39,410 nucleotides of DNA from an uncultured Actinomycetes bacterium (GTDB lineage Bacteria > Actinomycetota > Thermoleophilia > Gaiellales > F1-60-MAGs149), in contig CAIQOY010000043.1 in NCBI GenBank assembly GCA_903873565.1, positions 1 through 39,410 of the forward strand, written 5' to 3'. Numbering within the stretch: position 1 is the first letter of the stretch; each line of letters opens with the position of its first letter. Under the pieces are notes generated by a model, which was not told the DNA's origin, ran no database searches, and saw only the letters and a program-made list of their open reading frames with translations. Made by a program: the position numbers and the translations under genes. Positions 15,524 to 37,150 of the stretch are shown here, one piece after another.

Positions 15524-15536
15524 GGAGGACCCTGAC

Positions 15537-20636: not shown

Positions 20637-20649
20637 TTGGTCGGACCGA
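20637..20649. promoter_or_regulatory. Candidate GntR/FadR-type operator (TTGGTCGGACCGA)
   Basis: GGTC-G-GACC inverted repeat about 20 nt upstream of the SDR start codon, in the divergent region shared with the CynX-like gene. Confidence 0.5.
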
Positions 20650-20668
20650 TCGTGGTACGAATCCCCGC

Positions 20669-21421
20669 ATGCCCGAACTCCACTTCGACTTCACGGGGCG
20701 CGTCGCCCTGATCACCGGCGCCGCGAGCGGCGTCGGCCTGGCCACCGCCCGCCTCCTGCAGGACGCGGGCGCCAAGGTCGCCCTGCTCGACCTCTCCGCC
20801 GACGCCCTCGAGGCCGCGACGGCCGAGCTCGGCGGCGACGCCCTCGCCTGCCCGGCCGACGTCACCGACTCGGCGCAGATCGACGCGGCCGTGGCCGCCG
20901 TCGCGGCCGCGCACGGGCCGGTCGACGTGCTGGTCTGCTCGGCCGGCATCGCCGGCGCCTCGCTGCCCACCCTCGAGGTGACCGACGAGGAGTGGCGGCG
21001 CGTGATGGCGATCAACGCCGACGGCACCTTCTTCGCCATGCGCGCCGTCCTGCCCGGCATGACCGCCAAGGGCTACGGGCGGATCGTCAACGTGGCGTCG
21101 GTGGCCGGCAAGGAGGGCAACCCGATGGCGGCCGCGTACTCCGCCTCCAAGGCGGCGGTGATCGGCATGACCAAGTCCGTCGGCAAGGACGTCGCGGGCA
21201 CCGGCGTGCTCGTCAACTGCGTCTGCCCGGCCCCGATCGACACCCCGATGGTGCGCGGCCTCTCCGAGGAGCACGTCCAGTACATGCTCTCGCGGGTGCC
21301 GCTGGCGAGGCTCGCCACCGTCGACGAGGCCGCCACGCTGATCGCGTTCATGGCCAGCGACGGCATGACCTTCTCGACGGGCGCCGCGTTCGACCTGTCG
21401 GGCGGGCGGCTCACCTACTAG
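20669..21421 (+). CDS. Short-chain dehydrogenase/reductase (classical SDR)
   Basis: TGAASGVGLA cofactor motif, NVASVAG, catalytic YSASK. ATG at 20669. Confidence 0.9.
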   Translation: MPELHFDFTGRVALITGAASGVGLATARLLQDAGAKVALLDLSADALEAATAELGGDALACPADVTDSAQIDAAVAAVAAAHGPVDVLVCSAGIAGASLPTLEVTDEEWRRVMAINADGTFFAMRAVLPGMTAKGYGRIVNVASVAGKEGNPMAAAYSASKAAVIGMTKSVGKDVAGTGVLVNCVCPAPIDTPMVRGLSEEHVQYMLSRVPLARLATVDEAATLIAFMASDGMTFSTGAAFDLSGGRLTY

Positions 21422-21424
21422 CGC

Positions 21425-21457
21425 GACGGCCCGGGCGCGGCGCGCCCGGGCCCCGTC
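21425..21457. terminator. Bidirectional GC-rich hairpin between convergent SDR and ABM genes
   Basis: GACGGCCCGGGCGC-GGC-GCGCCCGGGCCCCGTC (9-bp perfect core plus an extended stem with a bulge). Confidence 0.45.
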
Positions 21458-21460
21458 GCC

Positions 21461-21748
21461 TCACAGCGGCGCGTAGAACTCGCGCCGGCGCTCCTCGAGG
21501 CGCGGGATCGCGTGCCCGAAGCCCCACTCCTGGAAGTGGGGCGACTCGACGTGGGCCTCGTAGGCCGCGGCGTCGGTGTAGACCTCGAACATGAAGAAGA
21601 CGTTCGGGTCCTCGACGTCGCGGTGCGCGCGGTACTCGAGGATGCCGGGCTCGGCCAGCGACGGCTCGAGCAGCTCGCCGAGGGCGCGCGCGACCTCGTC
21701 GGCCTCACCCTCCTTGGCCACCCAGCGGACGGCGACGACGTGGGTCAT
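21461..21748 (-). CDS. ABM-domain (antibiotic biosynthesis monooxygenase-like) protein
   Basis: 95-aa ferredoxin-like pattern: VVAVRWVAKEG...ILEYRAHRD..DPNVFFMFEVYTDAAAYEAHVESPHF. Confidence 0.8.
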   Translation of the reverse strand: MTHVVAVRWVAKEGEADEVARALGELLEPSLAEPGILEYRAHRDVEDPNVFFMFEVYTDAAAYEAHVESPHFQEWGFGHAIPRLEERRREFYAPL

Positions 21749-21770
21749 GGTCGTTCCCCTCTCTGGCGCC

Positions 21771-22184
21771 TCAGGCGCCGGTCCGGCCGGGCACGTACGC
21801 CACGGCCTCCATCTCGACGAGCATCCCGGGGACCGGGAGCTCCCTGACCCCGACCAGCGTGGAGGCGGGCCGGGTCTCCCCGAAGAACGCCTGCCGCTGC
21901 GGGTTGATGCGCGGGCGGTCGTCGACCTCGACGAGGTAGACGTTGACCTTGACGACGTCGGCCGGGGTCGCGCCCGCCGCGGCGAGGATCGCGGCGAGGT
22001 TCTCCAGGACCTGCGCGAACTGCGCCTCGACGTCGCCCGGTCCGGTCAGCGACCCGTCGGGGGCGAGCGCGGGCACGCCCGACACGAACAGGTGGTCGCC
22101 GGCCCAGACGGCGTCCGTGTAGTGGCTGAGGGGCGGCGCGAGCCCCGCGACGCTGACCTCCTCGCGTGCGGGGCCCGGCGCCAT
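21771..22184 (-). CDS. RidA/YjgF/L-PSP family (enamine/imine deaminase-like) protein
   Basis: LSHYTDAV..GDHLFVSG, VKVNVYL, PASTLVGV..LP..MLVEMEAVA C-terminal signature. Confidence 0.85.
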   Translation of the reverse strand: MAPGPAREEVSVAGLAPPLSHYTDAVWAGDHLFVSGVPALAPDGSLTGPGDVEAQFAQVLENLAAILAAAGATPADVVKVNVYLVEVDDRPRINPQRQAFFGETRPASTLVGVRELPVPGMLVEMEAVAYVPGRTGA

Positions 22185-22187
22185 CCG

Positions 22188-22805
22188 TCAGCCGATCGCC
22201 GCGATGACCTCGTCGGTCGTGGCGACCTCGGCGAGGTTGGGGATCGCGTACTCGAGGGCCGCCTTCTGCCACTCGTCGTCGATCGTCGAGGTGCCGTCGG
22301 AGACGACCACGACCTCGTAGCCGTTGTCGGCGCCCTGCCGGGTCGTCATCTCCACCGACATGTTGGTCCACGCGCCCGTGACGATGATCTTCTCGGCGCC
22401 GAGGCCGCGCAGCTTGATGTCGAGCGGCGTGTGCGAGAAGCCGCCCATGCGCTGCTTCTGGATCACGATGTCGCCGTCCTGCGGCTCGAGGCCCTCGACG
22501 GGCGCGGCGCCCCAGGAGCCGGCCTGCAGGGCGCCGACCTCGCGCACGCTGCGGTAGAGGCCGGCGTTCTGCTTCGAGTCGCGGTCGTGGCTCGAGCCCT
22601 GGTTGCCGAAGTGGTGGATGTGGACGACCTGGCCGCCCTTCTCGCGCATCGCGGCGGCCAGGCGCTTGACGTTCTCGACGACGTTCTGGCTCTTGGCGTG
22701 GGCGGGGGCGCCGGAGTCGGCGAAGGCGCCGCCCTCCATGATCACGTCGTTCTGCAGGTCGAGGATGATCAGCGCGGTCTTCGCGGGGTCGATCTTCGCG
22801 GGCAT
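22188..22805 (-). CDS. Isochorismatase-family hydrolase with Ser at the nucleophile position
   Basis: Asp in ALIILDLQND and Lys in VIQKQRMGGF are conserved. The G..T..C-V..T.R motif reads VTGAWTNMSVEMTTRQ, so Cys is replaced by Ser. Confidence 0.85.
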   Translation of the reverse strand: MPAKIDPAKTALIILDLQNDVIMEGGAFADSGAPAHAKSQNVVENVKRLAAAMREKGGQVVHIHHFGNQGSSHDRDSKQNAGLYRSVREVGALQAGSWGAAPVEGLEPQDGDIVIQKQRMGGFSHTPLDIKLRGLGAEKIIVTGAWTNMSVEMTTRQGADNGYEVVVVSDGTSTIDDEWQKAALEYAIPNLAEVATTDEVIAAIG

Positions 22806-22814
22806 CGGTGGCTC

Positions 22815-23714
22815 CTAGCGGAAGGCGGCCGAGCGGTGCCCGGCGACCGTGGTCTTGAGGACGTGGACGGTGGTCGAGGTGCAGAGGAACAGCGAGTGCC
22901 AGTCGTCGCCCCAGCAGAGGTTGCCGACGACCTCCGCCGAGTTGACGGTGCCGAGGTGCTCGCCCTCCTGGGAGATCACCCACACGCCGCCGGGGCCGGT
23001 GCACCAGAGGTTGCCGGCCTCGTCCATCTTCATGCCGTCCGGCACGCCGTCGGCGTAGACGGGCTCGCCCGGCCACTGGTAGAGCACCTCGCCGCCCGAC
23101 AGGCTGCCGTCGGCGTTGACGGAGAAGCGGCGGATGTTGAGGTCCTCGGTGTCGTTGATCCAGACGGTCTTCTCGTCGTGCGAGAAGCAGAGGCCGTTGG
23201 GCTTGTTGAAGTCGTCGACGACCAGCTGCAGGCCGCCGTCGCTCGTGTAGCGGTAGACGCCGCAGAAGTCGAGCTCGGGCTCGCGCTCCTCGCCGAAGCC
23301 GGGCCAGCGCCCGTACGGCGGGTCCGTGAACCAGATCGCCCCGTCGGAGGTGACCACGACGTCGTTCGGGCTGTTCAGCTCCTTGTCGCCGTAGTGCGAG
23401 GCGATCACCTTGCGCTCCCCGTCCTCGAGGACGACGACGGAGGAGGTCACGTGCTCGCAGAGGATGTGGTTGCCCGCCAGGCAGAGCGTGGTGCCGTTGC
23501 ACTTGTTGGACGGGTGCGCGACCACCTCGACGCCGCCCGCGCGCGTCCAGCGCCGGCGCGTGTCGGCGGGCATGTCGGAGAAGTACAGCGCCTGCTCGGA
23601 GGCCACCCACAGCGGCCCCTCGGTGAAGGTGCACCCACTGGCGATCTGCTCCCACGTGGCGTCGAGATCCACGAGGTCGGCCATGGCCGGGGACACCGCG
23701 GTGACGAGACTCAT
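22815..23714 (-). CDS. SMP-30/gluconolactonase/LRE-family beta-propeller (lactonase-like)
   Basis: TEGPLW, NSPNDVVVTSDGAIWFTDP, PNGLCFS, PDGMKMDEAGNLW motifs. RBS GAGGAGGGAAGAGG. Confidence 0.88.
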   Translation of the reverse strand: MSLVTAVSPAMADLVDLDATWEQIASGCTFTEGPLWVASEQALYFSDMPADTRRRWTRAGGVEVVAHPSNKCNGTTLCLAGNHILCEHVTSSVVVLEDGERKVIASHYGDKELNSPNDVVVTSDGAIWFTDPPYGRWPGFGEEREPELDFCGVYRYTSDGGLQLVVDDFNKPNGLCFSHDEKTVWINDTEDLNIRRFSVNADGSLSGGEVLYQWPGEPVYADGVPDGMKMDEAGNLWCTGPGGVWVISQEGEHLGTVNSAEVVGNLCWGDDWHSLFLCTSTTVHVLKTTVAGHRSAAFR

Positions 23715-23793
23715 CGGTCCTCTTCCCTCCTCGGTCCACCCGGCGGATCCGGGGCGGACCGGGTAGGTCTAGCGCATCGGGGGCGCCCGCGCA

Positions 23794-23806
23794 ATGGTCG
23801 GACCAT
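23794..23806. promoter_or_regulatory. Candidate GntR/FadR-type operator (ATGGTCGGACCAT)
   Basis: Perfect 6+1+6 inverted repeat in the divergent intergenic region between the lactonase operon and the ABC-transporter operon. Confidence 0.6.
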
Positions 23807-23824
23807 CCGGGCCGCGGCAGCCCA

Positions 23825-23853
23825 TTGACACGGCAAAAGGTCAGACCTATTGT
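23825..23853 (+). promoter_or_regulatory. Sigma-70/SigA-type promoter for the ABC-transporter operon
   Basis: TTGACA (23825-23830), a 17-nt spacer, then TATTGT (23848-23853). The spacer contains operator copy AGGTCAGACCT. The downstream 5' UTR holds a C(UUCG)G-capped hairpin (23866-23885) and the RBS GAGGAGGGGAG. Confidence 0.6.
23838..23848. promoter_or_regulatory. Candidate GntR/FadR-type operator (AGGTCAGACCT) overlapping the promoter spacer and -10
   Basis: Perfect 5+1+5 inverted repeat with the same GGTC-N-GACC core as the other copies. Confidence 0.55.
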
Positions 23854-23908
23854 CCCCCCCTGAGGGACGGGCCTTCGGGGTCGTCACGGGAGCAGAGGAG
23901 GGGAGCCG

Positions 23909-24958
23909 GTGTCGGCCAACGAGGGGCTGAAGGCCAAGCATGTCGCGACCGCCGGTCCCCGCGTGTCCTGGTCGAAGGGCACGATCTTCCTTCTCGCCGT
24001 CCTCGCCGTCGCGGTCCTCGGCATCGGCATCCAGGCCGCGAGCGACGCGACCCTGTTCGCCCAGATCACCCTCAACGGCCTCACCCTCGCCGGCCTCTAC
24101 TTCATCGTCGCGAGCGGCTTCACCCTGATCTTCGGGCTGATGCGCGTCGTCAACATGGCGCACGGCTCGTTCTACATGCTCGGCGGCATCATCGCCTTCC
24201 TGGTCCAGGAGCGGATGCTGAAGCCCGACCCGACCAGCTTCGACCTGCCGACGGCGACCTTCGGCTCCTTCGTGCTCCCGCTCGTGATCGCCACGTTCTC
24301 CGTCGCCCTGCTCGGCCTGATCATCCAGCAGGTCTTCCTGCGCTGGAACCAGGGCCAGGAGCTGCGCCAGGCGCTGATCACGATCGCGATCTCGATCATC
24401 GTCGCCGACCAGGCGGTGGCCCGCTTCGGCGGCATCGCGAAGGAGATCTCGGTCCCGATCGAGCGCTCCATCGAGCTGCCGATCGTGGGCAACTACGGGA
24501 CGATGCGGCTGGTCATGCTGCTGGTCGCGGTCGTCGTCGGCCTCCTGCTCCTCGGCCTGATCACCCGCACCCGCTTCGGCATGATCGTGCGCGCCGGCGT
24601 CGACGACCGCCAGATGGTCACCGCGCTCGGCATCGACATCCAGAAGGTGTTCGCCGTCGCCTTCCTCCTCGGCGCCTTCCTCGCCGGCCTGGCCGGCGTC
24701 CTCGGCGGCAGCGTCAACTCGGTCAACAAGGCCGACGACGGCAAGTTCCTGCTGATCTCGCTGGTGATCGTGATCGTCGGCGGGATGGGCTCGCTGACGG
24801 GCGCCGCGATCGGCGCGCTCCTGCTCGGCCTGATCGACTCCTACTCGGACGTCTACCTCCCCGACGCCATCACCAACTACGGCGTGCTCCTGACGTTCTT
24901 CCTGCTCGTGTTCGTGCTCGCGGTGCGGCCCTACGGTCTGTTCGGGAGGCCGGGGTGA
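23909..24958 (+). CDS. HAAT-family (LivH-like) ABC transporter permease
   Basis: LNGLTLAGLYFIVASGFTLIFGLMRVVNMAHGSFYMLGG is the LivH-type N-terminal signature. GTG start after the RBS. Confidence 0.88.
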   Translation: MSANEGLKAKHVATAGPRVSWSKGTIFLLAVLAVAVLGIGIQAASDATLFAQITLNGLTLAGLYFIVASGFTLIFGLMRVVNMAHGSFYMLGGIIAFLVQERMLKPDPTSFDLPTATFGSFVLPLVIATFSVALLGLIIQQVFLRWNQGQELRQALITIAISIIVADQAVARFGGIAKEISVPIERSIELPIVGNYGTMRLVMLLVAVVVGLLLLGLITRTRFGMIVRAGVDDRQMVTALGIDIQKVFAVAFLLGAFLAGLAGVLGGSVNSVNKADDGKFLLISLVIVIVGGMGSLTGAAIGALLLGLIDSYSDVYLPDAITNYGVLLTFFLLVFVLAVRPYGLFGRPG

Positions 24959-25989
24959 TCCCCGCCCGCCTGCAGTGGCCCGTCGGGATCGCGGTCGTGG
25001 CCGTGGCCTGCGTGCTGCCGTTCGTGGTCTCCGGCTTCACGACCAGCCAGATCCTGACGCGCGCGATGATCCTCGGGATCGCCGCCGCGAGCCTGATCTT
25101 CCTGGCCAGCCTCGGCGGCTGGGTCTCGCTCGGCCAGACCGGCCTCTACGGCGTCGCGGGCTTCGCCGTCGGCAACTTCGTCGAGGCGGACGGCGGCTCC
25201 AAGACGTTCGGCATGAACATCTGGCTGGCCACGATCCTGGCCCTGCTCGTGACGGTCGCCGTGGGCCTCCTGATCGGCGCGATCGCGAGCCGCAGCGAGG
25301 GCATCTACTTCCTGATGATCACCCTCGCCTTCGGCGTGATCATCAAGCTCCTGTTCGAGAAGGCGACGGACCTGTCGGGCTTCGGCGGCATCAACCAGAT
25401 CGTGCAGCCGGAGATCTTCGGGTCGGCGCAGCTCCAGCCGGAGCGGATCTACTTCGTCTGCCTCGTCGTCTCGATCGCCGTCTACCTCGGGGTGCGCTAC
25501 TTCGCCCGCACCCCGTTCGGGCTCGCCTTCCAGGGGATCCGCGACAACGCGACCCGCATGAAGGCGCTGGGCTACAACGTGACGCTGATCCGCACGATCG
25601 CCTTCGGCATCGGCGCCCTGATCGCGGGCCTCGCCGGCGTGCTCAACGTCTGGTGGAACACGCAGATCTCGCCGGGCACGATCGACATCGGCCCGCTCAT
25701 CTTCCTCCTGATGATCGCGATCATCGGGGGCCTCTACCGGATCGAGGGCGCCTGGATCGGCGCGCTCATCTACGTGATCCTGGACAACCGCCTGCGCTCG
25801 GTCGAGCTCGTGGGCGAGCGCGTCGCGACCGCGCTCGGGATCATCTTCCTGCTCATCGTGCTGCTCTCCCCGGGCGGCGTGATGGGCATCTACGAATCCA
25901 TCTCCCGCCGCGTGCGACGACCCCCCTCGGGGGACGACGCGCCCGCGGGGGGCGAGGGAGCCGCGGCGCCCGGCGTCGCGGGGGACTGA
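24955..25989 (+). CDS. HAAT-family (LivM-like) ABC transporter permease
   Basis: The GTG start overlaps the preceding stop (GTGA). SLGQTGLYGVAGF, FGLAFQGIRDNATRMKALGYN motifs. The upstream 387 aa of the track ORF are junk. Confidence 0.88.
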   Translation: MIPARLQWPVGIAVVAVACVLPFVVSGFTTSQILTRAMILGIAAASLIFLASLGGWVSLGQTGLYGVAGFAVGNFVEADGGSKTFGMNIWLATILALLVTVAVGLLIGAIASRSEGIYFLMITLAFGVIIKLLFEKATDLSGFGGINQIVQPEIFGSAQLQPERIYFVCLVVSIAVYLGVRYFARTPFGLAFQGIRDNATRMKALGYNVTLIRTIAFGIGALIAGLAGVLNVWWNTQISPGTIDIGPLIFLLMIAIIGGLYRIEGAWIGALIYVILDNRLRSVELVGERVATALGIIFLLIVLLSPGGVMGIYESISRRVRRPPSGDDAPAGGEGAAAPGVAGD

Positions 25990-26032
25990 CGGGGAAAGGA
26001 GGACGGGCCTGAACGATGGGAGATGCGAAGCG

Positions 26033-26061
26033 GACGGGCCCGTGGGACCACGGGACCCGTC
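26033..26061 (+). other. Intra-operon stem-loop 1
   Basis: GACGGGCCCGTGG / CCACGGG(A)CCCGTC, about 12 bp with one bulge. Confidence 0.5.
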
Positions 26062-26074
26062 GGACAACCGAACG

Positions 26075-26094
26075 GGGGCGCACGGGAGCGCCCC
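26075..26094 (+). other. Intra-operon stem-loop 2
   Basis: GGGGCGC-ACGGGA-GCGCCCC. Confidence 0.5.
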
Positions 26095-26125
26095 GCAGCA
26101 CGACCAACCACCACGAGGAGGGAAT

Positions 26126-27568
26126 GTGAGTACAGACAAGAGGCGATGGAAGTGGCTCAGCGCCGCGTTCCTCGCGATCCTGATCGGCGTCGTCGCCGCC
26201 GCGTGCGGTGGCAGCGACTCCGAGACCACCACGGCGGCGGAGGACACCGCGGCGGCTGACACCGCCGCTGCGGACACCGCGGCCGCGGAGGACACGGCGG
26301 CCGCCGCCGGTGGCGAGACGAAGATCGTCATGGGCTTCCTCTCGAACTGCGAGGGCCCGTTCGGTCCCTTCTGGGATGCCACCCTGGCCGGCTACTACAC
26401 CGCGCTGGTGCAGTACGCCGGGGCGACGCCCGTCGATCCCGCCGACCCGAAGGCCGGCGTGACCGGCGCGATGGTCCCGGGCACGGACGTGCCGATCGAG
26501 CTGAACACGAACTACGGCTGCTCGGACGACAAGGCCGACAAGGCCCTGGCGGAGGCCAAGCGCCTCGTCGAGCAGGAGGGCGTCAACGTCCTGATCGGCC
26601 CGCTGTCGGGCGATGAGGGCATCGCCGTGGCGAACTACGCCCTGACGCAGCCCGACGTCACGTTCCTGAACGGCATCTCCGGTGCCCAGGACACGACGCT
26701 GAAGGTGCAGGCCCCGAACTTCTACCGCTTCTTCTCTGACGGTGCTCAGTGGACGGCGGGTCTCGGCGCCTACGCCTACAACGTGCTCGGCTGGCGCACG
26801 GCCGTCACCATCGGTGACGACTACTCGTTCCCGTACACGCAGACCGCCGGCTTCGTCAGCGAGTTCTGCTCCCTGGGCGGGACCATCGAGGAGCGCATCT
26901 GGCCGGCCCTCGGCGAGACGGACTACTCGTCCTACATCGCCAAGCTGCCGAAGGACGTCGACGGGTTCTTCCTCGACGTCGGCGGCACGGGCACGGTCCA
27001 GTTCGTCAACCAGTACACCGAGGTGAACGGCGAGGACTCGCTCCAGGGCAAGGTCATGGGCGGCGCCTTCATCTCGAACCCGCAGATCATCGCGGAGCTG
27101 GGCAACAAGGTGAAGGGCGTCGTGGCCGGCTCGGCCCTGCCGTCCGACGCCACCACGCCGGAGTGGGAGGCCTACGTGGCCGCCATCGAGGCGGCGTTCC
27201 CCGACCAGACGGCCAACGCGGCCAACATCTTCCTGGCCGGCTACTACAACAACACCGTTGCCGCGATCAAGGGCCTCGAGGCCGTGGCCGGCAACATCGA
27301 CGACGCTGCTGCGTACCACGCCGCGCTGAACGGGACGGAGATCGAGACGGGCGTTGGCCCGGTCACGATCGACGGCAACCGCAACGCGGTCATGGACAAC
27401 TTCGTCGTCGAGGTCACCGACACCGGCACCAAGACCCTGTTCGTGGTGCCCGCGGTCGACCAGTCGTTCGGTGGCGCGTTCAGCACCGAGACGCCGAATC
27501 CGGATCGCGAGAACCCGGAGTGCGTCGCGGGCAACCCGCCGCCCTGGGCTGCGTCGATCACCGGCTAG
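26126..27568 (+). CDS. ABC transporter substrate-binding lipoprotein (type-1 periplasmic binding fold, LivJ/Peripla_BP_6-like)
   Basis: GTG 26126 after GAGGAGGG. Signal peptide with lipobox VVAAAC|GG. Ala/Asp/Thr-rich linker. LivJ-like core (KIVMGFLS..., VNVLIGPLSGDEG). Confidence 0.85.
   Translation: MSTDKRRWKWLSAAFLAILIGVVAAACGGSDSETTTAAEDTAAADTAAADTAAAEDTAAAAGGETKIVMGFLSNCEGPFGPFWDATLAGYYTALVQYAGATPVDPADPKAGVTGAMVPGTDVPIELNTNYGCSDDKADKALAEAKRLVEQEGVNVLIGPLSGDEGIAVANYALTQPDVTFLNGISGAQDTTLKVQAPNFYRFFSDGAQWTAGLGAYAYNVLGWRTAVTIGDDYSFPYTQTAGFVSEFCSLGGTIEERIWPALGETDYSSYIAKLPKDVDGFFLDVGGTGTVQFVNQYTEVNGEDSLQGKVMGGAFISNPQIIAELGNKVKGVVAGSALPSDATTPEWEAYVAAIEAAFPDQTANAANIFLAGYYNNTVAAIKGLEAVAGNIDDAAAYHAALNGTEIETGVGPVTIDGNRNAVMDNFVVEVTDTGTKTLFVVPAVDQSFGGAFSTETPNPDRENPECVAGNPPPWAASITG
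26234..26314 (+). repeat. Coding low-complexity repeat (roughly 15-bp units, AAEDT/AAADT) in the lipoprotein linker
   Basis: Encodes AAEDTAAADTAAADTAAAEDTAAAAGG. Confidence 0.7.
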
Positions 27569-27602
27569 GAATCGGGAATTCGAAGGACTGAATGACCGAC
27601 TG

Positions 27603-29115: not shown

Positions 29116-29122
29116 GGTCCCG

Positions 29123-31164: not shown

Positions 31165-31173
31165 GAGGAGAGC

Positions 31174-31575: not shown

Positions 31576-31589
31576 CCCGGATCGGCGAT

Positions 31590-31625
31590 GGGGCCCGGTC
31601 GGACCGCGCGGTCCGGCCGGGCCCC
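31590..31625. terminator. 36-nt near-perfect palindrome, bidirectional terminator between convergent cupin genes
   Basis: GGGGCCCGGTCGGACCGC|GCGGTCCGGCCGGGCCCC. All positions pair except one G-U wobble. Confidence 0.6.
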
Positions 31626-31635
31626 GCGCACGCCG

Positions 31636-32028
31636 CTAGCGCTCGACGTGGCCCGCGCCGCCCTGGTCGCCCAGGACGAGGTCGCGCTCGCGGTCGGGCA
31701 CGTGGTCGAGCGGGACGGGGGCGAGGCCCTCGATGAACGTGACCCCGGTCTCGGAGATGAGCTCGTGCTCGAGGCCGCGGTTGATGCAGACGACGTCGCC
31801 CGCACGCACGGTGCGGGTCTCATCCTCGACGGTGATGGTGACCTCGCCGTCGAGGATCACCATCAGCTGCTCGGTCTCGTCGTGGGAGTGGCGCGGCACG
31901 GTCTTGCCGGGCTCGTAGGTGACGCGGCAGAGCAGCATCTGGTCGCCGCCGAACGCGTTCAGGCGCACGCCGGGGAAGAGCTCGAGCGGCTCCTGGCCGT
32001 TCCAGGTCCCGAAGGGGGAGTCGGCCAT
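31636..32028 (-). CDS. Cupin-domain protein
   Basis: ATG at 32028, 3 nt after the upstream stop. Cupin motifs PRHSHDETEQLMVILDG and GDVVCINRGLEHELI. Confidence 0.8.
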   Translation of the reverse strand: MADSPFGTWNGQEPLELFPGVRLNAFGGDQMLLCRVTYEPGKTVPRHSHDETEQLMVILDGEVTITVEDETRTVRAGDVVCINRGLEHELISETGVTFIEGLAPVPLDHVPDRERDLVLGDQGGAGHVER

Positions 32029-32030
32029 CC

Positions 32031-33137
32031 CTACGGGGCGAACAGGACCGCGCTGTCGGCGGAGGCGACCGCGTTGATCGAGAGCTCCTCGTCGTAGCGG
32101 ATGTACTTGCCGTCCGTCCGCGACTCGGGCCTGCCCTCCTCCTTGGCGCGCAGGGCGCGCAGGACCTTCTCGGGCGTGATCGGCATCTCGGTCACCCACA
32201 CGCCGACCGCGTCGTAGATCGCGGTGGCGATCGCCGGCGGCTGGGCGTTGTTGGCCATCTCGCCGATCGACTTGGCCCCGAACGGGCCGTCGGACGACGG
32301 GTTCTCGATGATGATGCACTCGAGCTCGGGGAGCTCCTCCATCGAGGGCACGAAGTACGAGCCGTAGCCGGAGCCGCGGTGGTCGGGGCTCGGGTAGTAC
32401 GGGTACACCGTCTCGAGCAGGCCGAGCCCGAGGCCCTGCATGGCCCCGCCCTCGATCTGGCCCTCGACCATCGTCGGGTTGATCGCGCGGCCGACGTCGT
32501 AGACCTGCGACATCTTGAGCACGCGGACGTCGCCCGTCTCCGTGTCCACCTCGACCTCGGCGGCGCAGGCCGCGTACGAGATCGCCGAGTGCGGCGGCAC
32601 CGTGACGGCCCCCGTCTCGGGGTCGAGGGTGGCGTACTCCTTGAGGGCGGTGCCCTGGCCGGAGATCAGCTCGCCCTTCACGAAGGTGGCGAAGCCGGCG
32701 ATGTCGCCCATCCCGACCTTCTTGTCGGGGGAGCCCTTGACGTGCACCTCGCCGTCGGCGATCTCGAGGTCGCCGGCGTCCACCTCGAGCAGCTCGCCGC
32801 CGATCTCGAGGATGCGCGAGCGCACCTTCTCGGCCGCGAGGCGCACGGCGTTGCCGCCGATGAACGTGCCGCGCGAGGCGAACGTGCCCATGCAGAACGC
32901 GGACGAGTCCGTGTTCGAGGTGTCCATCGTGACCCAGTCCATCGGCACGCCGATGGCGTCGGCGACGATCTGGGAGTGGACCGTCTTGGAGCCCTGGCCG
33001 ATGTCGACGGTGCCGGCGAAGACGTCCACGCGGCCGTCCATCTTGAGCTTGATCCAGGCCTGCGACGGGTCGCCGTTCTGGTTCATGCCCGTCGGGTACT
33101 CGATCGCCGCGATCCCGCGGCCGACTGCCTTGGCCAT
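32031..33137 (-). CDS. Molybdenum hydroxylase (xanthine dehydrogenase/aldehyde oxidase family), C-terminal Moco-binding subunit (NdhM-like, 368 aa)
   Basis: Starts MAKAVGRGIA. VDIGQGSKT and FGAKSIGEMAN (active-site Glu region) motifs. The ATG shares its A with the TGA of the upstream subunit gene (TGATG). The first 424 aa of the 792-aa track ORF are out-of-frame junk. Confidence 0.85.
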   Translation of the reverse strand: MAKAVGRGIAAIEYPTGMNQNGDPSQAWIKLKMDGRVDVFAGTVDIGQGSKTVHSQIVADAIGVPMDWVTMDTSNTDSSAFCMGTFASRGTFIGGNAVRLAAEKVRSRILEIGGELLEVDAGDLEIADGEVHVKGSPDKKVGMGDIAGFATFVKGELISGQGTALKEYATLDPETGAVTVPPHSAISYAACAAEVEVDTETGDVRVLKMSQVYDVGRAINPTMVEGQIEGGAMQGLGLGLLETVYPYYPSPDHRGSGYGSYFVPSMEELPELECIIIENPSSDGPFGAKSIGEMANNAQPPAIATAIYDAVGVWVTEMPITPEKVLRALRAKEEGRPESRTDGKYIRYDEELSINAVASADSAVLFAP

Positions 33138-34507
33138 CAGTGGTCCTCCGGGTTGCCGAGCTGGCCCACGAGGTGCTCGGGCAGGTCGTCGCCCGAGCGC
33201 ATCGCGGCGGTCATGGTGCGGTAGTCGGCCGGCAGCTCGTGGCCGGTCGCCTCCGCGATCGCCTTGACGACCGGGACGGTCGAGGGGTCGGTGTAGACGA
33301 CGCCGTTCGGCGAGGTGTCGCCGAGCCGGTTCGCGTTCTTGAGCCGGAACTCGAGCGGGTCCATGCCGATCGCGCGCGCGCAGCGCTCGATGTGGATCTC
33401 CGTCGCGAACGAGACGCTGGTCACGCCGAATCCCCGCATGGCGGTCGACGGGACCCGGTTCGTGTAGACGACGTACCCGTTGAACTCGAGGTTCGGGATC
33501 GTGTACGCGCCCGTGTGGTGGAAGGAGTGCTTGGTGACGCCGTACGGCGAGAAGCGCGAGTACGCGCCCGCGTCGTGCAGGGTCAGCATCTTGCGGCCGA
33601 GGATCCAGCCGTCCTTCGTGATCGCGTCGGCGACCTCCATGTGCCAGCCGGCGCGGGTCGACGAGCAGAGGAACTCCTCCTCGCGGGTCCAGCGCCAGCG
33701 CACGGGGCGCTGGGCCTTGACGGCGAGGAGGACCGTGATCGTCTCGGAGGCCGTGTCGACCTTGCCGCCGAAGCCGGAGCCGGTCGTGCCGCCGATGAAC
33801 TTGAGCCGGTTGAGCGGCCAGTCCAGGTGCGCGGCGACGACGCCCATCGAGAAGTACATCGCCTGCGTGGCCGAGTAGACCGTGTAGCGGCCGTCGGCCT
33901 CGGGCACGACCTGCGTGACCTGGGTCTCCATCGGCACGTGCTCCATCGGGTACGGCCGGTAGACGCCCGTCACGATGTGGTCCGCCTGCTCGAAGGCCCA
34001 GTCGACGTCGCCCTTGCGGATCTGGCGGCGGTCCATCTGGCCCTCGAAGTCGGGGTACCAGTTCTGGTTGTCGTGCGCCTGCGGGGCGTTCGGCTCGAAC
34101 GCCCTGCGGATGTCGAAGAGCGGCTCGAGCTCCCTGTAGGTGACCTCGATCGCCTCGGTCGCGCGCAGGGCGGTCGCCTCGTCGACGGCCGCCACGGCGG
34201 CGATCGGCTGGCCGAGGTAGCGGACGTGCGTCGCGGCGAGCAGCGGCTCGTCGCCGGGGACGCCGAGCCCCTCGATGTGGCCGTGGACGTTCTTGTGGAC
34301 GTCCGCGTGGGTGACGACGGCGAACACGCCCTCCATCGCCTCGGCCTTCGAGGTGTCGATCGAGAGGATCTCCGCGTTGTGGTGCGGCGAGCGCAGCGCC
34401 TTCGCCCACAGCGTCCCCGGGATGCGCACGTCGTCGACGTAGCGGGTCCCGGCGGTGACGTGGGCGCCGGCGTCGTAGCGCGGCAGCCGCTGGCCGACGA
34501 CCTTCAC
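33137..34507 (-). CDS. Molybdenum hydroxylase, N-terminal Moco-binding subunit (NdhL-like, 456 aa)
   Basis: VGQRLPRYDAGAHVTAGTRYVDD a/b-hammerhead N-terminus, GGTTGSGFGGK, STAMRGFG motifs. The GTG start overlaps the stop of the 2Fe-2S subunit gene (GTGA). Confidence 0.85.
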   Translation of the reverse strand: MKVVGQRLPRYDAGAHVTAGTRYVDDVRIPGTLWAKALRSPHHNAEILSIDTSKAEAMEGVFAVVTHADVHKNVHGHIEGLGVPGDEPLLAATHVRYLGQPIAAVAAVDEATALRATEAIEVTYRELEPLFDIRRAFEPNAPQAHDNQNWYPDFEGQMDRRQIRKGDVDWAFEQADHIVTGVYRPYPMEHVPMETQVTQVVPEADGRYTVYSATQAMYFSMGVVAAHLDWPLNRLKFIGGTTGSGFGGKVDTASETITVLLAVKAQRPVRWRWTREEEFLCSSTRAGWHMEVADAITKDGWILGRKMLTLHDAGAYSRFSPYGVTKHSFHHTGAYTIPNLEFNGYVVYTNRVPSTAMRGFGVTSVSFATEIHIERCARAIGMDPLEFRLKNANRLGDTSPNGVVYTDPSTVPVVKAIAEATGHELPADYRTMTAAMRSGDDLPEHLVGQLGNPEDH

Positions 34508-35025
34508 CGCTCCACCCCCTTGATGGTCGTGTTGGCGCCGACGGCGGTCTCCTCGAGGTCGAAGGTCTCGCCGCGGGCGGCGGCCTGGACGGCCGCGATG
34601 ATCTTGACGTAGCCGGTGCAGCGGCAGGCGTGCCCGCCGAGCGCCTCGACGATCGCGTCGCGGTCGTCGGTCCCGCCCTGCTCGAGGTAGGCCGTGGCGG
34701 CCATCAGGAAGCCGCTGGCGCAGAACCCGCACTGGGCGGCGTAGTGGTGGATCCAGGCCTGCTGGAGCGGCGTCAGCTCGCCGCCGGCGGGGGCGAGGCC
34801 CTCGACGGTGCGGATCGCGGTGCCGCGCGCGGCCTCGACGGGCATCAGGCAGGAGCGGCGCGCCTCGCCGTCGACGATGACGGTGCAGGCGCCGCAGCCG
34901 CCGTGCTGGCAGGAGGCCTTGGGGCTGGTGATCGAGAGATCCTCCCGCAGCACGTGCAGGAGCGGCGTGAGGGGCTCGGCCTCCACGACCTGGGCCGTGC
35001 CGTTGACGGTGAACTCGATGCTCAT
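34504..35025 (-). CDS. (2Fe-2S)-binding small subunit of the molybdenum hydroxylase
   Basis: CQHGGCGACTV...C (plant-type cluster) plus QCGFCASG...CRCTGY (second cluster). The ATG overlaps the stop of the FAD-subunit gene (ATGA). Confidence 0.92.
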   Translation of the reverse strand: MSIEFTVNGTAQVVEAEPLTPLLHVLREDLSITSPKASCQHGGCGACTVIVDGEARRSCLMPVEAARGTAIRTVEGLAPAGGELTPLQQAWIHHYAAQCGFCASGFLMAATAYLEQGGTDDRDAIVEALGGHACRCTGYVKIIAAVQAAARGETFDLEETAVGANTTIKGVER

Positions 35026-35801
35026 GCGGCCTCCCGGAGCTGCTCGAGCGCGCGGCGGACGAGGATGGGCAGGGTCTGCTCGCGGTACCAGGCGGAGGCG
35101 ACCGCGTCGTCGGCGAGCTGGACGTCGGCGAGCGCCGCCCGCCCGGCGGCCTCGGGGTCGTCGGCCTTCGCCTCGGCCGAGGGGAGGCGCAGCCCGTGCG
35201 GGCCGGCGCCGGTCGCGGCGAGGCGGATGCCGTCCGCGCCGCGGACGGCGCTGACCGCGAGGGCCGTGTACTCGTGCGTGTGCTGGCGGTCGAGGTAGGC
35301 GTAGGCGCCGGGCGCCTCGTCGTACGCGACGTCGAGGACCAGCCGGCCGGCCCGCTGCGCCAGGAAGTCCTCGACGGGCTCGGTGCGCTCGCCGCCCTTG
35401 CCGGCGGAGCGGACGTGCGCCCCGAGGGCGATCATCACGCCCTGCAGGTCGCCGCGCGGCGCCTCGAAGTTGGCGGCGCAGAGGTTGCCGCCGACGGTGG
35501 CCTGGCGGCGCACCTCGCCGTCGGCGATGTGCGCGACGCACGACGCGACCGGGTCGGGCAGGCCCGCGAGCTCCGCCAGCGGCGTGCCGGCGCCGATCGT
35601 GACGCGGCCCCCGTCGCGGGCGATGCCGCCGAGGCCGGCGCGGTGGAGCATCAGCGCGGTGGCCGGGCGCTCGAAGCCGAGCTGGATGTTGGGGACGACG
35701 ATCGTGCCGCCCCCGACGACGAGCGTGCCGTCGCCGTCGCCGAACATCTCCACGGCCTCAGCCGGGGACGTCGGGATCAGTACTGCTGGTCCGTGAGCCA
35801 T
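35022..35801 (-). CDS. FAD-binding subunit of the molybdenum hydroxylase (CoxM/XdhB-like)
   Basis: LVVGGGTIVVPN FAD motif, RRQATVGGNL. 259 aa. RBS GGGAGA. Confidence 0.85.
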   Translation of the reverse strand: MAHGPAVLIPTSPAEAVEMFGDGDGTLVVGGGTIVVPNIQLGFERPATALMLHRAGLGGIARDGGRVTIGAGTPLAELAGLPDPVASCVAHIADGEVRRQATVGGNLCAANFEAPRGDLQGVMIALGAHVRSAGKGGERTEPVEDFLAQRAGRLVLDVAYDEAPGAYAYLDRQHTHEYTALAVSAVRGADGIRLAATGAGPHGLRLPSAEAKADDPEAAGRAALADVQLADDAVASAWYREQTLPILVRRALEQLREAA

Positions 35802-35819
35802 TCTCCCTACCCATGTCCG

Positions 35820-35837
35820 GCGGGGCTCGCGCCCCGC
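35820..35837 (-). other. GC-rich stem-loop between gntR and the hydroxylase operon (possible terminator/attenuator)
   Basis: GCGGGGC-TCGC-GCCCCGC in the 67-nt gap. Confidence 0.4.
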
Positions 35838-35868
35838 TCCTCCTCACCGCACAGGCGGCAGGGGCAGA

Positions 35869-36624
35869 CTACGGATTGGACTGACCACTTTCAAGTCGGG
35901 CGCGCGCCTCGATGGCCCGCTGGAGCCAGCGGCGGATGTCCTCGAGGTGCTCGCGCATGGCCTGCCCCGCGACCGCGGGGTCGCCCGTCTCGATCGCCGC
36001 GATGATGTCCTCGTGGGCCTCGAGCGTGCGGTCGAGGATGTCCTCGCCCTCCATGATCCGCTCGCGCAGGCTGGCCCCGAGGTGCCAGACCGAGTCGATC
36101 AGCTCGAGCAGGAGCGCGTTGCCGGCCAGCTCGTGGATCGCGCGGTGGAACTTGCGGTCCGCCGCGAGGTTCGCGATGCCGTCCTGGTCGCGGGTGATCC
36201 CCGCGGCGAGGCGGCGCAGGCGCTGCACGTCGCGCTTGGTGGCGCGCTGCGCCGCGAGCTCGGCGGCGCCCACCTCGAGCATGCCGCGCACGTCCATCAG
36301 CTGGCTGGCCGAGGTCGCGTTGCGCTCCACCGCGAAGATCAGCGGCGTGGCGAGGCGCTCGGTGGAGAGGTCGGTGACGTAGGTGCCGGAGCCCTGCCGC
36401 GCGGTCAGGACGCCCATCGACGACAGCGTCCGGATCGCCTCGCGCACGGTGGAGCGCGACACGTTGAGCTGGACGGCGAGGTCCCGCTCGACCGGGAGCC
36501 GGTCGCCGGGGCGCAGGCCGAGGCGCTCGATCATCTCGAGCAGGAGGTCGGCCGTCGCGGTGCCCGTGGCGCCGCGCGGGGCGGCCGGCGCGGTGGGACG
36601 GGTGCTGCGCGTGGACGGCGGCAT
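35869..36624 (-). CDS. GntR-family transcriptional regulator, FadR subfamily (FCD effector domain)
   Basis: HTH region ERDLAVQLNVSRSTVREAIRTLSSMGVLTARQGSGTYV. All-helical C-terminal domain with FHRAIHELAGN. ATG at 36624. Confidence 0.9.
   Translation of the reverse strand: MPPSTRSTRPTAPAAPRGATGTATADLLLEMIERLGLRPGDRLPVERDLAVQLNVSRSTVREAIRTLSSMGVLTARQGSGTYVTDLSTERLATPLIFAVERNATSASQLMDVRGMLEVGAAELAAQRATKRDVQRLRRLAAGITRDQDGIANLAADRKFHRAIHELAGNALLLELIDSVWHLGASLRERIMEGEDILDRTLEAHEDIIAAIETGDPAVAGQAMREHLEDIRRWLQRAIEARARLESGQSNP
35877..35887. promoter_or_regulatory. Imperfect operator-like copy (TGGACTGACCA; one mismatch to the palindrome)
   Basis: Lies in the last codons of gntR, about 75 nt upstream of the FAD-subunit start. 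Confidence 0.3.
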
Positions 36625-36629
36625 CGGCG

Positions 36630-37112
36630 TCAGCGGGCGCCCTGCTCGAGCGCGTCGAGGAAGAGCGAGGCGCGCAGGTTCCACTCGGACTGGGGGAACG
36701 CCTCCTCGAGCCGGCGCAGCGGCACCTTCGCCTGGTCGACGCCGGTGACGTCGCGGCAGACCAGTTCGATCAGGTTGCCGCCCGGGTCGACCAGGTACAT
36801 CTGGCCGGCGCCGTCCGGCAGGAGGTTCGCCGCCGCGAAGCCCGGCACCTCGACCAGGCAGCCCCGGCGGACCGCCTCGACGAACAGCTCCTCGAAGTTG
36901 TCGACCTCGAGGCCGAGATGGTGGCGGCTGGTCGGCGGCTCGCCCTCGGGGAACAGGTGGACCTGGCGCTGGCCGGCGCGCAGCCACTCCGTGCGCACGC
37001 CGAAGTTCGGTCCGGGGATGTGCTCCATGCCGAGGAAGTCGACGTAGAACGCGAGGGACTCGTCGAAGTCCTTGACGGAGATGCTGACGTGGTTGAGGTC
37101 GGTGACGCCCAT
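36630..37112 (-). CDS. VOC-family (glyoxalase/bleomycin-resistance/dioxygenase) protein
   Basis: LNHVSISVKDFDESLAFYVDFLGME and HHLGLEV metal-ligand pattern. 160 aa. Confidence 0.85.
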   Translation of the reverse strand: MGVTDLNHVSISVKDFDESLAFYVDFLGMEHIPGPNFGVRTEWLRAGQRQVHLFPEGEPPTSRHHLGLEVDNFEELFVEAVRRGCLVEVPGFAAANLLPDGAGQMYLVDPGGNLIELVCRDVTGVDQAKVPLRRLEEAFPQSEWNLRASLFLDALEQGAR

Positions 37113-37137
37113 CGCCGTACGGGGGGGTACGCGGGAA

Positions 37138-37150
37138 ATGGTCTGACCAC
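37138..37150. promoter_or_regulatory. Candidate GntR/FadR-type operator (ATGGTCTGACCAC)
   Basis: Perfect TGGTC-T-GACCA inverted repeat about 27 nt upstream of the VOC-gntR operon start codon. This implies autoregulation. Confidence 0.6.

Follow-up and report, generated by a model that had tools for sequence, protein, structure and literature searches.

A predicted GntR1 regulon for the uptake and breakdown of small cyclic compounds in an uncultured Thermoleophilia bacterium

Contig CAIQOY010000043.1 (assembly GCA_903873565.1) of an uncultured, Thermoleophilia/Gaiellales-like soil actinobacterium was analysed over a stretch of 39,410 nucleotides (hereafter, the window), in which a catabolic island is accompanied by an FCD-type GntR regulator, here named GntR1, and by five candidate operators. 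We hold with moderate confidence, on the strength of comparative sequence analysis, that the island is a lineage-specific GntR1 regulon of about 22 genes serving the uptake and breakdown of one or more small cyclic compounds. Five transcription units are involved (the SDR gene, the lactonase operon, the ABC operon, the molybdenum (Mo)-hydroxylase operon and VOC-gntR, which contains the gene of GntR1), and each of them has one operator. A regulon of a single FCD-type GntR is the best reading and is supported because the motif equals the LldR operator, the regulator is nearest to LldR among named relatives, every unit has one site in its promoter core, and the sites co-occur with the GntR1 orthologue. 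A first-pass annotation of the window had already suggested that this regulator co-regulates the island: the five conserved promoter-core sites support this, while the left edge has to be moved to about 18080 and the genes do not behave as one co-evolving unit.

Candidate operators and their promoters

The window has a G+C content of 73.5%. Five exact matches to the palindrome GGTCNGACC had been reported in it by the first-pass annotation, and we recovered them at 20639, 23796, 23839, 31597 and 37140, with zero in the remaining ~22 kb of the 39.4-kb window; the single-mismatch copy claimed at 35877-35887 is also present (found at 35878). The accompanying claim that such a palindrome is expected far less than once per 39 kb by chance had to be abandoned: the core has 8 specified bases, for which 2.49 matches are expected, and five or more were reached in 11 of 100 shuffles. 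Since 5 versus 2.49 is within chance, we rejected the count of the 8-base core alone as evidence of enrichment. One-mismatch copies of GGTCNGACC were even below shuffle level (28 found vs 44 expected).

The flanks reveal a longer unit, as the four intergenic sites and the 35878 copy share the form (A/T)(A/T)T-GGTC-N-GACC-A or a similar one. For this extended palindrome, TGGTCNGACCA, we found four matches with at most one mismatch against 1.12 expected, a number reached in 2 of 100 shuffles. We also established an empirical background in 2.0 Mb of DNA related, yet not closely related, to the window, in which TGGTCNGACCA occurs at 1.0 exact and 18 one-mismatch sites per Mb. This density predicts 0.04 exact and 0.71 one-mismatch sites for the window, compared to the 2 and 4 observed (P = 7.5e-4 and 6e-3, respectively). 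Five candidate operators emerge, two of which are exact copies of TGGTCNGACCA, and four of the five lie in the island's intergenic DNA, which totals only 841 nt. These four are the exact core hits at 20639, 23796, 23839 and 37140, which had been described as promoter-proximal and are indeed intergenic and in promoter cores. The fifth (35877) overlaps the last gntR codons, 76 nt 5' of the start of the Mo operon. No operator-like site with at most one mismatch was found in positions 1-18031 of the window. The promoter of the ABC operon was called by a scan (10/12 matches vs 0.0 expected), and those of the other four units were read from the sequence. The elements are as follows:

20638-20648, no strand assigned: operator O1, TGGTCGGACCG, in the MFS/SDR divergent region, 21 nt 5' of the SDR start
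23795-23805, no strand assigned: operator O2, TGGTCGGACCA, overlapping the proposed -35 of the lactonase-operon promoter
23825-23853, plus strand: ABC-operon promoter TTGACA-17-TATTGT, with operator O3, AGGTCAGACCT (23838-23848), in the spacer
31589-31626, no strand assigned: bidirectional terminator hairpin with a 17-bp perfect stem (-50.1 kcal/mol, z = -4.67), containing GGTCGGACC
35866-35894, minus strand: proposed Mo-operon promoter TTGAAA-17-TAGTCT, with operator O4, TGGTCAGTCCA (35877-35887), in the spacer
37139-37154, minus strand: operator O5, TGGTCAGACCA (minus strand, 37139-37149), abutting the -10 TATCGT (37149-37154) of the VOC-gntR promoter

All five sites were conserved at orthologous promoters, in up to five diverged lineages with the GntR orthologue and amid diverging intergenic DNA (L-numbers denote the related loci compared with the window). 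The counterparts of O1 read CGGTCTGACCA in L171 and L172 and TGGTCCGACCT in L173, and in all three loci the invariant block cgtggTACGAATcc comes next, with the ATG after it; an invariant, -10-like GTGGTACGAATCC block follows O1 before the SDR start codon. In L171, L085 and L086, O2 was kept despite diverging flanks, and O3 and the ABC-operon promoter were identical to those of the window. At the Mo operon, O4, the 17-nt spacing and both hexamers were retained in L164, L084, L085, L003 and L173, following the pattern TTG(A/C)AA-17-TA(G/A)(T/C)CT. The gntR stop codon (TAG, or TAA in relatives) is here part of the -10, and the last five gntR codons show zero synonymous changes in five lineages, though the proteins are only 73-77% identical. 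O5, which we propose as a candidate site of autoregulation, was kept in L164, L084, L085 and L173 with A, C or T as central base, and the -10 next to it reads TATAAT in L164.

Over 20 site instances from five lineages, positions 2-5 (GGTC), 7, 9 and 10 were invariant and GACC was mostly kept, while the central base was free (A, C, G or T). Variants specific to a promoter persist as well, with AGGTCAGACCT at the ABC operon and TGGTCAGTCCA at the Mo operon. Farther away, TGGTCNGACCA was not found at up to one mismatch in L167, a distant Mo-operon locus, and in two others the FadR-type palindromes that stand near GntR/FCD genes are akin to it but differ in sequence (TGGTACCACC in L170, GGTCGCACCA in L168), indicating that the exact operator is lineage-specific. 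No exact core match lies upstream of livH in the genome loci surveyed.

The remaining exact core match, at 31597, had been assigned to a terminator palindrome, and it does form part of the 17-bp hairpin stem between the convergent cupin genes. Its flanks are C/G (CCC-GGTCGGACC-GCG), and the orthologous cupin-cupin spacer of L003 has a different hairpin in which the motif is not present; on these grounds we rejected it as an operator. The Rfam scan gave no riboswitch in the island, and tRNA and Rfam scans together gave only the tRNA-Lys at 11261-11333.

GntR1 and its regulatory precedents

GntR1 and the gene that precedes it in the same unit are:

35869-36624, minus strand: GntR1, FadR-subfamily regulator and proposed repressor (PF00392, E = 1.3e-20; PF07729 FCD, E = 6.9e-27)
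36630-37112, minus strand: VOC protein (glyoxalase/dioxygenase fold), first gene of the VOC-gntR unit (PF00903), for which no specific NCBIfam family was matched

An N-terminal GntR winged helix-turn-helix and a C-terminal FCD domain place GntR1 in the FadR subfamily. Its solved relatives include LldR of Corynebacterium glutamicum (2DI3), and LldR is also its top NCBIfam match (NF007741), at 133 bits compared to a cut-off of 311; GntR1 is not a member of the LldR equivalog, and Pfam showed no lactate permease or dehydrogenase among the regulon genes. The five candidate sites fit the FadR consensus TNGTNNNACNA, which for LldR takes the form TGGTCTGACCA. The latter is the high-affinity operator of C. 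glutamicum LldR, bound with a Kd of 81 nM (PMC2602784; also cited in PMC11472048), and there it overlaps the promoter or transcription start, making LldR a repressor (PMC2602784). GntR1 is like LldR in its architecture and in an identical 11-bp operator, but differs from it in its score and in the predicted control of five units and some 22 genes, with no lldD or lldP.

The closest regulatory precedent is DipR of Alcaligenes faecalis JQ135, an autoregulating FadR-type repressor with one palindrome in each of the six promoters of the dip cluster, whose inducer is the substrate of the dip pathway, the N-heterocycle dipicolinate (PMC11472048). It differs from GntR1 by recognising GWATAC, not TGGTCNGACCA, and the two enzyme sets share nothing specific. 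The dip cluster was rejected as a match to the island, the dip pathway being monooxygenase-based and independent of the molybdenum cofactor. As far as sequence analysis can show, the GntR1 regulon is real. The kind of system is known (a FadR/LldR-type repressor over a multi-operon catabolic cluster), while its enzyme complement is undescribed and put together from two modules that are abundant in soil.

Among the relatives of the window, the European Nucleotide Archive (ENA) metagenome contigs L081-L083 have an identical GntR1 and neighbouring products 98-100% identical to those of the window, and the nearest genomes are metagenome-assembled genomes of Gaiellales and Thermoleophilia. Contigs identical to the window reach at most 39 kb in metagenomes, and the longest contig in a cluster of 98%-identical MoCoBD_2 proteins measures 58 kb. 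Syntenic relatives were found at ~90% identity (Mo subunit) in L164, at 73-88% in L003, L084, L085 and L086, at 82% (SDR) in L171/L172, and at 78% (SDR) and 77% (GntR) in L173. Wherever the GntR1 orthologue occurs, the sites occur too, including in L173, which has only OYE/SDR (OYE, Old Yellow Enzyme) and gntR-MFS-Epim (Epim, epimerase/dehydratase). This locus retains GntR1, with an identical recognition-helix region, and three operators, among them a relic of O4.

A second FCD-type GntR gene (GntR2) lies ~3 kb past the right end of the window, in the same gene string, and upstream of it stands an AT-rich palindrome, TATATGATC..GATCATATA, unlike GGTCNGACC. The string GntR2-Cupin_7-SDR-Epim-MFS runs into VOC-gntR1 (L081:5200-5270 and the L164:1515-1625 region). 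No second GntR was found in 10 kb of L173.

Two modules and their enzymes

We scanned 20 island proteins with Pfam and 18 with NCBIfam (June 2026). The gene assignments made at first pass all hold up in Pfam, and the island genes are, from left to right:

18080-19189, minus strand: OYE-type FMN ene-reductase (PF00724, E = 1.8e-64)
19252-20493, minus strand: CynX/NimT-like MFS transporter 1 (PF07690), divergent from the SDR gene
20669-21421, plus strand: SDR oxidoreductase (PF00106/PF13561; no NCBIfam cut-off reached)
21461-21748, minus strand: ABM-fold protein, a possible cofactor-less monooxygenase or tautomerase, last gene of the lactonase operon (PF03992, E = 2.7e-21)
21771-22184, minus strand: RidA-family imine/enamine deaminase (PF01042)
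22188-22805, minus strand: isochorismatase-like hydrolase, an Asp-Lys-Ser triad replacing Asp-Lys-Cys (PF00857)
22815-23714, minus strand: SMP-30/gluconolactonase-family hydrolase (SGL), first gene of the lactonase operon (PF08450)
23909-29115, plus strand: HAAT-family ABC importer (PF02653 twice, PF13458, PF00005 twice), comprising the next four lines
23909-24958, plus strand: LivH-like permease (PF02653)
24955-25989, plus strand: LivM-like permease (PF02653)
26126-27568, plus strand: lipoprotein binding protein (PF13458)
27603-28403 and 28396-29115, plus strand: ABC ATPases (PF00005 each)
29123-30340, plus strand: UPF0261 (Tm-1/MarK family) predicted ATP-dependent kinase-like protein (PF06792, PF23189)
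30337-31164, plus strand: phosphoenolpyruvate (PEP)-hydrolase-like TIM barrel (PF09370, 430 bits), its start overlapping the UPF0261 stop
31174-31575, plus strand: cupin 1, last gene of the ABC operon (PF07883)
31636-35801, minus strand: Mo-hydroxylase operon (Pfam), with overlapping or abutting frames, comprising the next five lines
31636-32028, minus strand: cupin 2, last gene of the operon (Pfam)
32031-33137, minus strand: MoCoBD_2 subunit (PF20256)
33137-34507, minus strand: hammerhead/MoCoBD_1 subunit (PF01315 + PF02738)
34504-35025, minus strand: 2x[2Fe-2S] subunit (PF00111 + PF01799)
35022-35801, minus strand: FAD subunit (PF00941)
37192-38394, minus strand: CynX/NimT-like MFS transporter 2 (TIGR00896 CynX/NimT, 210 bits, E = 4e-62, vs a cut-off of 406)
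38399-39367, minus strand: NAD-dependent epimerase/dehydratase, Epim (NCBIfam)

Judged from gene neighbourhoods, the island is a fusion of two separately conserved modules and not one co-evolving unit. By the same comparison, module A is the HAAT ABC importer with UPF0261, the PF09370 protein and cupin 1, and module B is the split Mo hydroxylase with cupin 2, plus SGL, the isochorismatase-like hydrolase and the SDR. We surveyed 79 genome loci centred on the PF09370 protein: UPF0261 accompanied it in 72, cupin 1 in 43 and ABC genes in 39, while a Mo enzyme lay within 10 kb in 3 and SGL or the isochorismatase-like gene in none. Conversely, at 18 distant Mo-operon loci, each of at least 9 kb, cupin 2 was always present (18/18), SGL and the SDR in 8 each, the isochorismatase-like gene in 7, the epimerase in 5, and UPF0261 or HAAT genes in none. 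The GntR1 orthologue was absent from the 79 loci and from the 18. The co-conservation of genes expected of the island was found within each module, while the fusion of the modules is conserved only in the clade of the window. One of the outcomes that the first-pass annotation had named as refuting its view, a lack of co-conservation, therefore holds in part.

Within module A, gene junctions (23909-31575) are overlaps or gaps of 7-34 nt, with the one exception of 136 nt before the binding-protein gene. This unusually long, G+C-rich gap between LivM and the binding protein (25990-26125) has no operator inside, and it may boost expression of the binding protein, either as an internal promoter or through RNA processing or stabilisation. 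Solved relatives of the binding protein include 4EY3/4EYG/4EYK (E = 2.5e-10), which we take to be aromatic-acid binders. UPF0261 is homologous over its full length to Tm-1 (E = 2e-79) and MarK (9MPY, E = 3e-68), and a subfamily model called 'hypothetical protein' was the sole curated NCBIfam cut-off reached among the 18 proteins. MarK of Novosphingobium is a demonstrated ATP-dependent aryl-hydroxyl kinase acting on lignin-derived monomers (PMC12624787). Common to both are the ATP-binding Lys (in D11-T12-K13 of the island protein) and the equivalents of Gly195 and His219, which contact the phenolic oxygen, as well as the stacking residue His304. Replaced in the island protein are His348 (ketone-binding) and Phe283 and Ile285 (hydrophobic wall) of MarK, positions at which it resembles Tm-1. 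The only partners of MarK, moreover, are a biotin carboxylase and a phosphatase (acvCDEF); no AcvCDE-type biotin-dependent carboxylase or AcvF phosphatase domains were found in the island by Pfam. In tomato Tm-1, UPF0261 is joined to a PF09370 TIM barrel, which in the island is a separate, overlapping gene. The solved relative of the island's PF09370 protein, Mll9387 (2P10), has no function assigned, and the literature searched held no functional study of PF09370 or 'TIM-barrel signal transduction' proteins. In three other Thermoleophilia genomes (L015:1598-3178, L011:1038-2504, L038:11156-13609), the module adjoins a LarA-like gene (lactate racemase family, PF09861) divergent from livH, with a FAD-linked oxidase, AP_endonuc_2 proteins and a LuxR-type regulator also nearby. 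These neighbours hint at a 2-hydroxy or 2-oxo acid as the module's native substrate.

The Mo hydroxylase of module B has the split layout of nicotinate dehydrogenases, with a FAD subunit, a 2x[2Fe-2S] subunit and a Mo subunit on two polypeptides. The best solved relative of its hammerhead/MoCoBD_1 subunit is NdhL of the Eubacterium barkeri nicotinate dehydrogenase (3HRD chain A, E = 2e-60), which belongs to an enzyme, NdhFSLM, of the same four-subunit layout with a split Mo subunit, in parts presumably of ~50 and ~37 kDa. The similarity is remote: every named NCBIfam model was far below cut-off for the Mo-hydroxylase subunits, with glyceraldehyde dehydrogenase subunits among the top FAD and Fe-S matches, the downstream Hnr and enamidase of E. 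barkeri are absent here, and the invariant partner is instead a small metal cupin. The translation of MoCoBD_2 contains K-S-I-G-E, in agreement with K-x-[VI]-G-E, which we assume to be the family context of the catalytic Glu (the equivalent of bovine Glu1261). Searches of the literature for NdhL/NdhM gave mostly unrelated cyanobacterial NDH-1 papers. The operon of Mo hydroxylase and cupin is abundant in soil, with >1,800 homologues at E <= 1e-60 that bear generic names throughout. Its longer contexts include CoxD/CoxE-type maturation genes, NIPSNAP or ABM proteins, a thiamine pyrophosphate (TPP) enzyme fused to RidA, aldehyde dehydrogenase, Amidohydro_1 and other GntR/FCD genes. In L168:1352-5952 and L170:2597-7191, the split Mo hydroxylase stands back to back with an unsplit three-subunit Mo hydroxylase, CoxG and a GntR/FCD gene, and a conserved -10-like GTTAGAATCGCCGC block precedes the FAD subunit of the split enzyme. 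In L173:1962-2216 (GCA_038911075.1), the Mo operon is deleted and only the 5' end of the FAD gene (the window's first eight codons, ATGGCTCACGGNCCAGCAGTAC...) and O4 with its promoter remain, a relic that shows the predicted regulon shrinking in one lineage.

Cupin 2 is strikingly conserved for a protein of 130 residues, being about 70-75% identical among the best 120 of roughly 1,900 metagenomic homologues, and a 24-sequence sample has 46 invariant columns, with an invariant H-x-H...E...H metal motif. Its gene follows MoCoBD_2 in all 18 of the distant loci and in each of the other contexts that were annotated. Rather than an independent enzyme of the pathway, cupin 2 may be the fifth subunit of the Mo hydroxylase or a functional partner of it.

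In the lactonase operon, the SMP-30 protein has putative gluconolactonases as its best solved relatives (3E5Z, 3DR2). The isochorismatase-like protein is not a classical cysteine hydrolase, given the Ser at its nucleophile position. This Ser150 was kept in nine orthologous copies at 51-72% identity (L086, L095, L099, L101, L103, L124, L126, L157 and L167), and the nucleophile motif GAWTNMS[VI]E in every orthologue; in second copies of L099 and L101 the position is Ala. Its nearest named relatives, RutB and the biuret hydrolase BiuH, score ~80 bits against cut-offs of 370-378, and the RidA-family protein stays below the cut-offs of both TIGR00004 (82 bits) and RutC (48 bits). The adjacency of the two genes resembles RutB and RutC of the Rut pathway, yet the scores (79/378 and 48/169 bits), the change of the catalytic Cys to Ser and the absence of RutA, RutD, RutE, RutF and RutG set the island apart from it; Pfam found no luciferase-like or flavin reductase gene, as would be RutA or RutF, in the island.

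To the left, the island probably reaches ~18080, taking in OYE and the CynX/NimT-type MFS divergent from the SDR. The OYE start at ATG 19189 agrees with the L171 orthologue, and the divergent OYE/SDR pair with an operator between is conserved in L171 and L173; its gene order makes OYE a probable member of the regulon. The left MFS copy is missing in L171 and L173, where OYE is directly divergent from the SDR, and so looks like a recent duplication and insertion. Two paralogous MFS transporters (60% identical, 390 residues) bracket the island, each adjoining an operator-bearing region. On the right, Epim and MFS are probably associated with the island, and their membership in the regulon is uncertain: Epim-MFS-gntR is contiguous in L173, while in the lineage of the window Epim-MFS follow GntR2. 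In L084, a TGGTCGCACCA site lies immediately 5' of Epim (position 2164).

Positions 1-18031 of the window hold unrelated housekeeping genes and genes of nitrogen-compound metabolism:

561-2591: HemD/uroporphyrin methylase fusion
3051-3749: cytochrome c assembly protein
5095-6522: histidine ammonia-lyase-like protein
6519-7334: PfkB kinase
7813-8973: TatC
8970-10310: HutI-like amidohydrolase
11261-11333: tRNA-Lys(CTT)
12769-14256: choloylglycine-hydrolase-family amidase
13778-15523: MFS transporter
15537-17297: Amidohydro_3 protein
17327-18031: haem-binding-domain protein

Proposed mechanism, rival explanations and meaning

From these elements we infer a mechanism in which a GntR1 dimer would bind the 11-bp TGGTCNGACCA at the five promoter cores. 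Since the operators sit in promoter cores, the bound dimer should occlude RNA polymerase, and a small-molecule effector would release GntR1 and permit transcription, with the O1 region shared by the SDR and the divergent MFS/OYE genes. The HAAT ABC system and the CynX/NimT-type MFS pumps would bring in a substrate that the split Mo hydroxylase, being of the nicotinate-dehydrogenase type, would hydroxylate next to the ring heteroatom, and the translationally coupled metal cupin would process its product. OYE and the SDR could then reduce and re-oxidise the ring, the SMP-30 hydrolase and the Ser-type isochorismatase-like hydrolase could open it and remove an amide, and RidA could quench the resulting enamine or imine. 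The UPF0261/PF09370 pair would use ATP to phosphorylate an enol or a hydroxyl on the ring. That the ring contains nitrogen is favoured by the CynX/NimT type of the transporters, by RidA and by the RutB-like hydrolase, and our best guess from the enzyme classes is an N-heteroaromatic acid or amide. The order of enzyme classes is the same as in the hxn nicotinate pathway of Aspergillus nidulans, where a Mo hydroxylase, OYE, SDR, ring-opening hydrolase and amidase act in succession (PMC9304392). This is an analogy only: the hxn flavin monooxygenases HxnX/HxnV and the cyclic imidase HxnM have no counterpart in the island, and the hxn pathway in turn lacks cupins, a VOC protein, RidA, an SMP-30 protein and a UPF0261/PF09370 pair.

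Several observations weigh against this proposal. The modules are conserved apart, the ABC/UPF0261 genes without a Mo enzyme in 76/79 loci and the Mo operon without UPF0261 in 18/18, and they may consequently act on different compounds. Elsewhere, the ABC/UPF0261 module adjoins LarA-like and FAD-linked oxidase genes, and the named relatives of GntR1 sense 2-hydroxy or 2-oxo acids, both pointing away from heterocycles. No enzyme reaches a curated equivalog cut-off, so enzyme roles are assigned at family level only. We searched the fold of the cupin 2 AlphaFold model (pLDDT, the predicted local distance difference test, of 83) against the PDB, and its neighbours were only generic small metal cupins (Sthe2323, KdgF, TM1459 and a cellulose-oxidising cupin), from which we draw no substrate. 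O4 lies within coding DNA, where constraint on the protein could account for some of its conservation. The 8-base core count, lastly, is not significant by itself.

A possible but doubtful alternative is that one repressor governs two or three autonomous modules acting on different co-occurring compounds, not a single route; the ABC/UPF0261/PF09370/cupin genes may, for instance, serve a 2-hydroxy or 2-oxo acid and the Mo module a ring compound. The separate lives of the modules speak for it: ABC and UPF0261 occur without Mo, SGL or isochorismatase-like genes in 39/79 loci, the 18 Mo loci lack UPF0261 and HAAT, the neighbours of ABC/UPF0261 elsewhere are LarA-like, FAD-linked oxidase and LuxR-type genes, and L173 keeps OYE/SDR and gntR-MFS-Epim alone under the same operators. 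Yet the window and the lineages of L164, L084-L086 and L171 all retain the fused arrangement and its five operators, at amino-acid identities of 73-90%, the ABC/UPF0261 operon is wedged between the two halves of the Mo-hydroxylase module, and both modules lie within 10 kb in three more distant genomes (L019, L029 and L046).

We consider it unlikely that the regulation is as proposed and the substrate free of nitrogen; possible substrates of this kind are sugar acids or lactones, aldehydes, and acids that are phenolic or derived from lignin. In that case, the Mo enzyme would serve as an aldehyde or aryl oxidoreductase, the SDR would be a dehydrogenase paired with the SMP-30 protein as lactonase, ring cleavage or isomerisation would fall to the cupins and the VOC protein, and UPF0261 would be a phenol kinase like MarK. 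Such a substrate would suit the gluconolactonases among the solved relatives of the SMP-30 protein, the label 2-dehydro-3-deoxy-L-rhamnonate dehydrogenase given by JGI to several SDR orthologues, the resemblance of the epimerase to GalE and D-erythronate dehydrogenase, and the glyceraldehyde dehydrogenase subunits among the top FAD and Fe-S matches. The GFO/IDH/MocA, AP_endonuc_2 and TPP enzymes adjoining the Mo operon in L167-L170 agree with it too, as do the weak relation of the binding protein to aromatic-acid binders, the lignin-derived substrates of MarK and KdgF among the fold neighbours of cupin 2. However, the importer belongs to the HAAT type rather than to the sugar ABC systems, the MFS pumps belong to the CynX/NimT type, RidA and a RutB/BiuH-like hydrolase belong to the conserved set, the nearest solved Mo subunit is that of a nicotinate dehydrogenase with the same split architecture, and Pfam found no sugar-acid dehydratase, aldolase or kinase in the island.

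That the cluster is an already characterised pathway, for example a published degrader of pyridine or pyrimidine carboxylates, is improbable. In its favour, several Mo hydroxylases of four components are reported to act on pyridine carboxylates in Alcaligenes and Bacillus. Against it, none of the 18 proteins reached an NCBIfam equivalog cut-off, homologues of the four proteins searched bear only generic or automated KO-style names, and the best homologue of the Mo subunit in a plasmid collection is 43% identical and generically annotated. NicC, NicX, NicD, NicF, NicE, Hnr, enamidase and the enzymes of the 2-methyleneglutarate branch were not found among the proteins scanned with Pfam and NCBIfam, and full-text searches for the domain combination or an oxidative pyrimidine pathway gave no match to the gene set, within a scope that left subscription journals mostly outside. 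The view of the first-pass annotation that no characterised pathway matches therefore stands, given that no equivalog cut-off was reached, that the island lacks the enzymes by which the Nic, Hnr/Ena and Rut routes, the acetovanillone system and the dip cluster are defined, and that plasmid homologues are at most 43% identical. Among the curated families, solved structures, plasmid records and papers searched, none places this combination in a known pathway.

Finally, it is very improbable that the palindromes are chance matches or sites of another FadR-type regulator such as GntR2, despite a core count within chance, the nearby GntR2 gene in the same string and a TNGTNNNACNA consensus common to many FadR-family proteins (PMC11472048), given that the extended motif is enriched, sits in promoter cores and persists in five lineages while its central base varies freely, that a site lies directly 5' of VOC-gntR1 (or of gntR1 itself in L173), that GntR2 has its own distinct AT-rich palindrome, and that L173 has sites and GntR1 with no second GntR in 10 kb.

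The predicted GntR1 regulon bears on two groups of widespread proteins. The operon of Mo hydroxylase and cupin, abundant as it is in soil, has no substrate assigned. The UPF0261/PF09370 pair is widespread in bacteria and fused in the plant protein Tm-1, and the sole known activity of UPF0261 is that of MarK (2025), with none for PF09370. We regard as quite unlikely, though worth stating, that UPF0261/PF09370 is a two-component, ATP-dependent enzyme phosphorylating the lactam or enol oxygen that the Mo hydroxylase would place on a heterocycle. If true, phosphorylation would activate the ring for opening or substitution, a new strategy in a new, soil-abundant N-heterocycle pathway and the first physiological role of PF09370. 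With both of them under one predicted repressor that has a textbook operator, the molecule to which GntR1 responds should be either the substrate itself or an intermediate formed early on, and screening ligands against a single purified protein would lead directly to the substrate. Such a screen, if it works, would put a name to a new catabolic route of uncultured Thermoleophilia and provide a function for two domains of unknown function.

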